From the IMG/VR virus record IMGVR_UViG_2531839129_000021: a DNA stretch of 39,463 bases; one strand, given 5' to 3'. This stretch comes from a virus. Lineage: Duplodnaviria; Heunggongvirae; Uroviricota; Caudoviricetes. Made by a program: the position numbers and the translations under genes. This document shows positions 2,686 through 3,947 of the stretch, piece by piece. Under the pieces are notes generated by a model that saw nothing but the letters and a program-made list of their open reading frames with translations, had not been told where the DNA came from and ran no database searches. Within the stretch, counting starts at the first letter, position 1. Each line of letters starts with the position of its first letter.

Positions 2686-2724
2686 CGCAAAGTCTCCGCA
2701 ATTACACGCAAGAAAAAACCGCCA

Positions 2725-2892
2725 TCAGGCGGCTTGGTGTTCTTTCAGTTCTTCAATTCGAATATTGGTTACGTCTGCATGTGCTATCTGCGCCCACAGC
2801 ATCCAGTGGTCATAGCAGTCGCTGATGTTCTCGGCTTCGATAACTCTGTTGAATGGTTCTCCATTCCATTCACCTGTGACTCGGAAGTGCAT
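2725..2892 (-). CDS. Hypothetical small protein (55 aa)
   Basis: ATG-initiated ORF MHFRVTGEWNGEPFNRVIEAENISDCYDHWMLWAQIAHADVTNIRIEELKEHQAA, co-oriented with the early-left operon; below the 60-aa cutoff of the ORF track; no function recognised. Confidence 0.35.
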   Translation of the reverse strand: MHFRVTGEWNGEPFNRVIEAENISDCYDHWMLWAQIAHADVTNIRIEELKEHQAA

Positions 2893-3134
2893 TTATCATC
2901 TCCATAAAACAAAACCCGCCGTAGCGAGTTCAGATAAAAGAAATCCTCGTCAGTGCGAGGATGCTGTTCATTGCTGCTATACACTTTTTTGCTCTCAACG
3001 TAAGCGGTAGCCCATTCTGTTGGGTTGGTGCAGTTGCTTTTAGGAAATGCTATTTACCCCTTAAATGTCGGCTGAAAGAGCTAAAATCCATGCAAAAAAT
3101 TTACGCAATTTTGTGTATTATTGTGCAGTAAGTA

Positions 3135-3737
3135 ATGAGCTATTTTCTGCGCAAAAAATGGATGGTAAATTTGTCCGGGTCAGGAAAAATTTTATGGGCG
3201 CTAAACATGAAAAAAGATTCGTATCCTTATTTGATTTGCATGACAGTTTCAGGGCTGATCTTTATTTTCCTTTTCTTCTGGTGGCGGGCAGATATCTACA
3301 GGGTCACGTTTCTTAATCAGAGTATATCCCACTATTACATTCTGTTTAGCATGGGAATAGCTTTTCTGTTATCTCTGTTTTGGGTTAAGAAGGGGATAGT
3401 AAAACAAAGAGGCTGGAAGAGTCTGTCAGCATACCTTAAGGTTTATGCAGGGATGTGCATATTTGCTGGATTTTTTCTGATTATACCCCTTACGACACTA
3501 ACTTATTTTTTGCCTGGAGAGACATCGTCTTATGTTGCACCGTATCGGTATACTTCCGGTAGTTCAAAAAGTTGTTCTGGAGCTGAGGTGGATGACCCCG
3601 ATCTACATGAGAATATTCGCATTTGCTATCCGTATGGCAATTATGAGTACGATAATATTATCTATGTTGAAAAGAAAATTAATATATTAGGTGCGGTAGT
3701 GACATATGCACAGACCGCGCGTGATGATACTGAATGA
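3135..3737 (+). CDS. Polytopic membrane protein of unknown function (moron; candidate exclusion/defence protein)
   Basis: 200-aa ORF with 3-4 hydrophobic helices and a ~75-aa C-terminal soluble tail; visibly AT-rich; opposite strand to the flanking early-left genes; alternative in-frame ATG starts at 3162 and 3207. Confidence 0.6.
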   Translation: MSYFLRKKWMVNLSGSGKILWALNMKKDSYPYLICMTVSGLIFIFLFFWWRADIYRVTFLNQSISHYYILFSMGIAFLLSLFWVKKGIVKQRGWKSLSAYLKVYAGMCIFAGFFLIIPLTTLTYFLPGETSSYVAPYRYTSGSSKSCSGAEVDDPDLHENIRICYPYGNYEYDNIIYVEKKINILGAVVTYAQTARDDTE

Positions 3738-3771
3738 TATAGTATATAGCGGGCAAGTTTTAGTTAATTTA

Positions 3772-3795
3772 TCGAGGTAATATAATTTACCTCGA
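3772..3795 (+). terminator. Putative hairpin terminator downstream of the membrane-protein gene
   Basis: 9-bp stem TCGAGGTAA/TTACCTCGA with 6-nt loop, followed by a T-rich stretch. Confidence 0.35.
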
Positions 3796-3947
3796 CTCGT
3801 TTGTTCTGGTATTAATGTTTCGCTTTACGACCGATTTTTATCTGATGATATCATGCGGTTTTCATATACTGACTTACTGTCTTTTCTCCGTTAGCGATTT
3901 TCTCCTGCTCAGCGATGATTTTATCTTTGGCTTCTAGTTAATTTCGC

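Follow-up and report, generated by a model that had tools for sequence, protein, structure and literature searches.

SieA of phage P22 is an inner-membrane protein of 162–164 amino acids (aa) with three transmembrane (TM) helices, encoded opposite to its neighbours under its own promoter; expressed by the prophage, it blocks DNA injection (PMC10883804). A comparable gene lies in the virus record IMGVR_UViG_2531839129_000021, a stretch of 39,463 nucleotides (nt; hereafter the window), on the plus strand between xis and the early-left genes of a lambda-like prophage (Table 1). The two proteins are alike in length (~165–176 aa), in having three predicted TM helices and in coming from a single gene antisense to its phage neighbours. 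Their layouts differ: SieA carries a ~60-residue soluble loop between TM1 and TM2 and a short C terminus, whereas the window protein has its three TM helices first and then a 70-residue C-terminal β-barrel with a cysteine pair. HK97 gp15, a superinfection-exclusion protein that reportedly blocks DNA entry (Cumby et al. 2012, cited in PMC11436027), is likewise a single-gene moron with a putative terminator and a small membrane protein as product, but it is 62 aa long and lies among tail genes, co-oriented with them. With P2 old and tin, relatives of the window gene share locus and orientation (opposite to gpA), a likeness of position only and not of sequence; Old is a cytoplasmic ATPase–TOPRIM nuclease and Tin is cytoplasmic too, whereas the window family consists of small membrane proteins. 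Small β-barrels of the OB fold (DUF1093/YxeA, cold-shock domains, EF-P/eIF5A domains) also count among the closest known systems. We are highly confident that the locus is an autonomous moron cassette, that its gene is real and under selection, and that this gene encodes a 176-aa membrane protein.

The window starts in ybhC and enters the prophage at att-lambda. There follow int (1419–2489), xis (2467–2685), ORF55, an AT-rich block that contains the plus-strand gene, a TraR/DksA-type zinc-finger gene and, beyond the latter, orf63, orf60a, exo, bet, gam and kil, the genes around the block all lying on the minus strand. Window positions 2690–2962 correspond to lambda 29083–29355, and 3936–4600 to lambda 30380–31045; since lambda homology stops at 2962 and restarts at 3936, the block between them replaces a lambda segment that holds ea8.5 and all of ea22 except its first codons. 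An earlier note, made from the letters of this DNA, had proposed just such a replacement, which is confirmed. The note's AT-rich block is likewise real, GC being 0.34–0.41 over ~2850–3900 against a window mean of ~0.49 (0.493) and lowest in the block itself (0.23 percentile among equal-sized stretches of the window), although its size is ~0.97 kb rather than the ~1.2 kb first given.

The block is not new, a point that the earlier note overlooked: it is known sequence of phage 434. DNA identity is 99.8% to mEp332 and 98.4% to 434, 434B and 2B8, and the block has the same neighbours in 434, mEp332 and 2B8, with orf55/tL4 on one side and the TraR-like gene on the other. Lambda and ~265 other phage records have the flanks without the block, which among such records occurs only in 434, mEp332 and 2B8; among complete Escherichia coli genomes it is present in full in 905 of 5,426. 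Phage 434 CPT_434_36 (UMO75300), the mEp332 and 2B8 equivalents and RefSeq WP_001348592 are all the same gene as that of the window. Records of the 434 type label it 'putative membrane protein' or 'hypothetical' and record no function, and the only statement in the 434 genome paper is that the morons of 434 differ from those of lambda (PMC9119081). The immunity region of the window matches Sf6 and HK446, so the prophage is not phage 434 itself. Hex, the 434 exclusion protein, was considered and set aside as a different gene, located in the immunity region (PMC3564112); the window is in any case not imm434.

Comparison with P2-like prophages delimits the mobile unit. An E. coli P2-like prophage aligns with the window at 76% DNA identity from ~3039/3070 to 3827, with an extra patch at 3894–3937, a homology that includes ~140 nt of upstream sequence, the gene itself and the hairpin behind it; Salmonella copies align from ~3074–3111 to ~3705–3748. 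By these alignments, a cassette made up of a putative promoter, the gene and a putative terminator moves between lambda-like and P2-like prophages. The P2-like copies have a GC of 0.38–0.44 in loci of ~0.53. That the same unit recurs in an unrelated phage family supports its reading as a moron, as do its absence from lambda at this site, its antisense placement, its low GC, a conserved element of its own that resembles a promoter, and a downstream hairpin as probable terminator. The orientation was also correctly described in the earlier note, the open reading frame (ORF) being on the plus strand and the early-left operon on the minus strand.

The 137 nt upstream of the gene align to the E. 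coli P2-like and Salmonella P2-like copies without gaps, at 77% and 61% identity, respectively. In the same pairs the gene itself has diverged far more at its synonymous sites (identity 44% and 30%), and the region ahead of it is therefore under constraint. Within this region, TGnTAAnTT is kept 44–48 nt before the ATG of the gene in five cassette lineages, one formed by the window and 434, the others being Cedecea, E. coli P2-like and two Salmonella P2-like. A generic −35/−10 scan returned nothing upstream of the gene, missing this conserved extended −10 element. The P2-like cassettes of E. coli and Salmonella also keep two or three TTGTG(T/C)A repeats, which look like the binding site of a regulator that recognizes direct repeats. 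Counting TTGTGCA-like forms, two to four such repeats precede the putative promoter in lambda-like and P2-like copies alike, ~90–110 nt 5′ of the gene in L005 and L025.

Downstream, the hairpin described in the earlier note is present, with a 9-bp stem and a folding energy well below that of shuffled sequence (Table 1). An interrupted T-rich tail comes after it, and the cassette probably ends here by intrinsic termination. In the E. coli P2-like copy there is a homologous, weaker hairpin at the same position, with one compensatory A–T to G–C change. A search of 2400–4400 against Rfam gave no match.

Remnants of an ead/Ea22-like gene border the cassette. One (3934–3951) retains the first five codons, VSEIN, then a stop, and overlaps the stop codon of the TraR-like gene; the other, a C-terminal-like piece (LEAKDKIIAEQEKIANGEKTVSQYMKTA*, 3851–3937), has 77% DNA identity to a frameshifted Ea22-like gene that adjoins the cassette in E. 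coli P2-like prophages. The cassette adjoins an ead/Ea22-like gene in lambda-like and E. coli P2-like settings alike (L025, 6532–7067; L027, 5385–5755). The presence of this neighbour in both phage families suggests that Ea22 homology mediated cassette exchange, in which case the flanking ead/Ea22-like genes may be the recombination anchors.

The plus-strand ORF of 200 aa reported earlier (3135–3737) exists, but its start has to be moved. All homologues (166–189 aa, a small Enterobacteriaceae family) share a start at the position of Met25 of this ORF, where the sequence reads MKK.SY. The E. coli P2-like cassette lacks the ATG of 3135, which in Salmonella is followed directly by TAG and which lies upstream of the conserved, putative promoter element. 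In a Shigella variant, three substitutions fall in the 24 upstream codons and five in the other 176. On these grounds we place the start at Met25, and the true start is probably this ATG at 3207, 72 nt downstream of 3135, giving a protein of 176 aa. Three different starts are annotated in databases, among them those giving 200 aa (PGAP, mEp332) and 188 aa from a TTG codon (434). N-terminally shortened forms, lacking TM1 and TM2, are also very common in databases, as in P0159 (112 aa, on at least 1,000 contigs), P0146 (128 aa) and P0166 (81 aa); they may be miscalled starts or real 5′ deletions in P2-like prophages. A 56-aa ORF just upstream (2961–3131, plus strand), annotated in 434 as a 'putative membrane protein' (CPT_434_35), was rejected as a probable non-gene, its frame being broken by stops in the P2-like cassettes that are homologous to this one.

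The gene is real, intact and under strong purifying selection. The ratio of non-synonymous to synonymous substitution rates (dN/dS) is 0.12, 0.09–0.10 and 0.17 against homologues at 78%, 71% and 60% identity, which answers the earlier concern that homology might reveal a truncated or decayed host gene. The start codon, two cysteines and sequence motifs are invariant over 35 family members, and the exact window protein is found on at least 1,000 contigs.

The protein is predicted to have three TM helices, at ~7–26, 41–60 and 75–101 of its 176 residues. A full-length AlphaFold2 model, built on a 22-sequence alignment (predicted local distance difference test, pLDDT, 85.7), has long helices at 5–31, 38–61 and 70–101 and then a five-stranded β-domain (105–171). 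The C-terminal domain is modelled as an OB-like five-stranded β-barrel of ~70–72 residues (~102–171), reaching a pLDDT of 90.2 in isolation, and a short strand in loop 1 (34–36) may pair with it. These predictions agree with the three to four hydrophobic helices and ~75-aa soluble tail described earlier, with three helices and a soluble domain of ~72 residues. We examined conservation and charge by region across 35 diverse family members. The C-terminal domain is the best-conserved region, loop 2 has a net charge of ~+3, and Cys123 and Cys140 are invariant (35/35), the remaining cysteines being unconserved. From the positive-inside rule and the conserved cysteine pair around a β-hairpin we infer an N-in/C-out topology. 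The C-terminal domain is accordingly predicted to be periplasmic and disulfide bonded, with only ~20 residues facing the cytoplasm, and the conserved loop IYRVTFL is predicted to face the periplasm. An N-terminal lipobox was considered and rejected, as Cys11 is unconserved. In its predicted localization, a small prophage protein of membrane and periplasm, the product resembles the exclusion proteins SieA, Imm, Sp, gp15 and Ltp.

Searches place the protein in a small, closed family. A profile search of 1.84 billion representatives returned 61 clusters at 50% identity; a match to a 3,074-aa protein was discarded as a low-complexity, adhesin-like artefact. None of 22 family members matches Pfam or NCBIfam, and none of the 22 matches PADLOC-DB v2 at E ≤ 0.01. 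The sole PHROGs match, phrog_1416 (of unknown function), is confined to the C-terminal half, a partial coverage that probably reflects the widespread 5′-truncated gene calls of 112–128 aa. An hmmsearch of Protein Data Bank sequences found nothing below E = 0.5, and tblastn against 50,697 INPHARED phage genomes found 434-type records only. Profile comparison with hhalign gave no homology to P22 SieA (probability 0.2%), HK97 gp15 (0.8%) or the SieB homologue of the window (0.1%). Membership of the NfeD-like group, short membrane proteins in which TM helices precede a C-terminal OB barrel, was also considered: no member of the window family has a Pfam match of this kind, the only Foldseek match in BFVD has E = 0.33 and probability 0.21, and the invariant cysteine pair disfavours the assignment, as it argues for a periplasmic and not a cytoplasmic domain. 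Literature searches by protein accession and by topic found no study of the window protein, and it is absent, by accession, from the DefensePredictor supplements.

Besides the window, the gene stands in a prophage context in at least eight other lineages. In at least seven lineages of P2-like prophages (E. coli, Salmonella, Klebsiella and metagenomes), homologues of 47–78% identity (individually 78, 71, 68, 60, 56, 51 and 50%) lie between the portal gene gpQ and the replication gene gpA and are transcribed opposite to gpA, as are old and tin. The locus is cos-proximal and in P2 houses old and tin; Rousset et al. showed by experiment that anti-phage systems cluster there (PMC9122126). The placement holds for the homologues; the window copy itself sits elsewhere, in the early-left region of a lambda-like prophage. 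The P2-type copy is complete in 62 further E. coli genomes of the 5,426, and one homologue lies at a prophage end, adjoining an integrase and an HNH gene.

The hotspots carry other genes beside the homologues. In a Klebsiella P2-like hotspot (L021), the homologue stands beside a 790-aa AAA_16 ATPase gene (3251–5623) and a 279-aa gene (2281–3120), both on the minus strand and so opposite to the homologue, a pair that looks like a separate candidate defence system. Four Salmonella P2-like hotspots (L004, L007, L012 and L013) have two small same-strand genes just upstream of the homologue (~5100–5890, plus strand), of 81–123 aa and 119 aa and without Pfam domains. Both are missing from L005, so they are probably independent cargo.

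The best reading of the window locus is that of a lysogen-expressed moron whose product would act at the cell envelope, and we tentatively put forward superinfection exclusion as its function. With hardly any of the protein predicted to be cytoplasmic and with no partner gene, action at the envelope is the most plausible. In the lysogen, where pL is repressed, the cassette could be expressed constitutively from its own putative sigma-70 extended −10 promoter; once the phage enters lytic growth, antiterminated transcripts from pL would cross the cassette in antisense. The protein would then act on the periplasmic face of the inner membrane, its periplasmic domain binding the DNA-delivery apparatus of an incoming phage (tape measure, ejection or tail-tip proteins) or, alternatively, an inner-membrane component that this apparatus uses. 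Genome entry would be blocked and the cell not killed. P22 SieA, T4 Imm and Sp and, reportedly, HK97 gp15 act in this way. The exclusion or abortive-infection role favoured in the earlier note is strengthened by association only, through the repeated gpA–gpQ hotspot position of the relatives.

With greater reserve still, we see a possible founding member of a new family of single-gene, envelope-acting anti-phage proteins, which would combine three TM helices with a disulfide-bonded periplasmic OB-like barrel, block genome entry and travel as a cassette between the lambda-like xis–exo and P2-like gpQ–gpA defence hotspots. A further speculation, that the conserved TTGTGCA repeats with their 10-bp spacing would let the CII-type activator of an incoming lambdoid phage boost expression, seems far-fetched.

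Several observations weigh against an exclusion role. The ribosome-binding site ahead of 3207 is weak in the E. coli copies. A SieB superinfection-exclusion homologue (8038–8592, plus strand; PF14163, E = 1e-29) adjoins the N gene and also runs against the pL operon, so that the early-left region of the prophage has a known exclusion gene on the plus strand already. In E. coli P2-like prophages, StbA/ParM lies next to the cassette. The E. coli P2-type protein WP_000711113 is listed as 'hypothetical' in supplementary file 6 of Rousset et al., who reported no assay of it, and the gpQ–gpA hotspot also houses partition systems, toxins, and virulence and maintenance cargo (PMC9122126). Finally, full-length copies in Enterobacter, Klebsiella and Cedecea are chromosomal, outside prophages and in ordinary neighbourhoods, two of them with host-like GC.

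The chromosomal copies fit a general role at the envelope no less than one in defence, and together with the non-defence cargo of the hotspot they favour an account in which the protein is a lysogenic-conversion factor unrelated to phage, with a periplasmic domain that would help the host to adapt or shield it. It might, for instance, confer orphan immunity (to membrane- or periplasm-acting toxins such as pore-forming colicins, contact-dependent inhibition or type VI secretion effectors) or tolerance of envelope stress, comparable to lambda Bor and Lom. A small polytopic inner-membrane protein behind a presumably constitutive promoter resembles the immunity proteins of pore-forming colicins. 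Homology to immunity or stress families is nevertheless absent in Pfam and NCBIfam, no toxin gene adjoins any copy examined, and competition between phages better explains why at least seven P2-like lineages have the gene where old and tin lie. We regard this account as rather unlikely.

An abortive-infection effector, which would depolarize or permeabilize the inner membrane in the manner of RexB and kill the cell before progeny are made, is an improbable alternative. Small TM proteins are common as effectors of defence systems (PMC9122126), and the hotspot location and moron-like, lysogen-type arrangement would suit one. However, the cassette has a single gene with no sensor partner in any context, PADLOC gave no match, and it is the folded periplasmic domain, not the helices, that is most conserved. 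With only ~20 predicted cytoplasmic residues there is next to nothing to sense an intracellular infection, which makes abortive infection less likely than exclusion.

That the gene works for its own phage, for instance by affecting when lysis occurs, how DNA is injected or how lysogeny is established, is very unlikely. Such a role could draw on the upstream motif TTGTGTATTATTGT, flagged as a CII consensus by the 434 annotators, with expression perhaps arising through this TTGY-N6-TTGY 'CII site'; in our own reading, a possible −10 (TATTTT, 3141–3146) lies 16 nt downstream of the motif. The pattern is, however, no commoner in the window than chance would have it (13 occurrences, where 9.0 ± 3.1 are expected), and the 'CII site' was set aside on this ground; the two matches in the window that we read as the lambda pI- and pRE-type CII sites are both of the form TTGC...TTGC (2698–2711 and 10749–10762). 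The motif at 3111–3127 is also kept in P2-like prophages, which have no CII. Lambda and most lambdoid relatives grow normally without the gene, and homologues occupy chromosomal sites as well. It is hardly credible that foreign AT-rich DNA should have left here, by chance, an ORF without function or in decay: common 5′-truncated variants and the weak ribosome-binding site might favour it, but they stand against the low dN/dS, the residues invariant in 35 members, a confident AlphaFold2 model and the conserved upstream element.

A gene carried by textbook phage 434 and by about one-sixth of complete E. coli genomes, counting lambda/434-type and P2-type copies, has no family assignment, structural relative or recorded function. 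Because it recurs at the P2 old/tin position, it is an inexpensive and well-defined candidate where a new mechanism of exclusion at the envelope is sought, and the mobility of its cassette between lambda-like and P2-like prophages is a clean case of moron exchange between unrelated temperate phages. Should it prove not to be anti-phage, it would still be a widespread lysogenic-conversion membrane protein.

Table 1 Features of the cassette and its surroundings (window coordinates)
Feature	Position	Strand	Details
AT-rich block	2963..3935	.	973 bp, GC 0.382; stands in for lambda 29356–30379
Coding sequence of the 176-aa predicted inner-membrane protein	3207..3737	+	Maximal ORF 3135–3737, 200 aa
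Conserved upstream regulatory region (putative promoter and 5′ untranslated region)	3070..3206	+	Gapless alignment to P2-like copies
TTGTG(T/C)A direct repeats, 10-bp period	3111..3127	+	434 annotation: 'CII binding site' (TTGYN6TTGY)
Predicted extended −10 element, TGgTAAATT	3163..3171	+	Puts transcription start near 3178
Hairpin, 9-bp stem and 6-nt loop (probable terminator)	3772..3795	+	Followed by CTCGTTTGTT; ΔG −12.9 kcal/mol, z = −4.3 against shuffles
ead/Ea22-like gene remnants	3851..3951	−	Translation; resemblance to lambda Ea22 N terminus VSEINSQALRE
ORF55	2725..2892	−	Lambda orf55 (lambdap35) homologue; 96% DNA identity; phrog_676, E = 5.5e-40; flanks the moron, outside the block
Leftward terminator, two hairpins in tandem (called tL4 in the old record of 434)	2912..2962	−	ΔG −20.5 kcal/mol, z = −4.75
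TraR/DksA-type zinc-finger gene	3948..4169	−	PF01258, E = 1.6e-8; phrog_54; 99% identical to lambda

The flanks of the block are ordinary lambda sequence. The tandem hairpins that form its left boundary are also found in lambda, as is the TraR/DksA-type gene, the last early-left gene ahead of the block. The 55-aa ORF that the earlier note had taken for co-located cargo is the common lambda orf55, which lies outside the replaced segment and is shared by ~270 phage records.

Other features were noticed elsewhere in the window. A 158-aa ORF (9268–9744, minus strand) overlaps and lies just downstream of the repressor gene (9669–10301), at the position of lambda rex, and has no Pfam match. Identity to Sf6 and HK446 over the region is 97.5%, and among the features under the match the record of one phage, Huey, includes a PagP protein (lipid A acylation), a label that may belong to this ORF. 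A 294-aa trypsin-like peptidase ORF (17207–18091, plus strand; PF13365, E = 2e-10) comes shortly after the lysozyme gene (16142–16639), lies in a second AT-rich patch (~17.07–17.83 kb) and is possibly another moron. A third AT-rich patch (6961–7711, GC ~0.40), between kil and the N region, holds a DUF2528 gene (ORF 7092–7460, minus strand).

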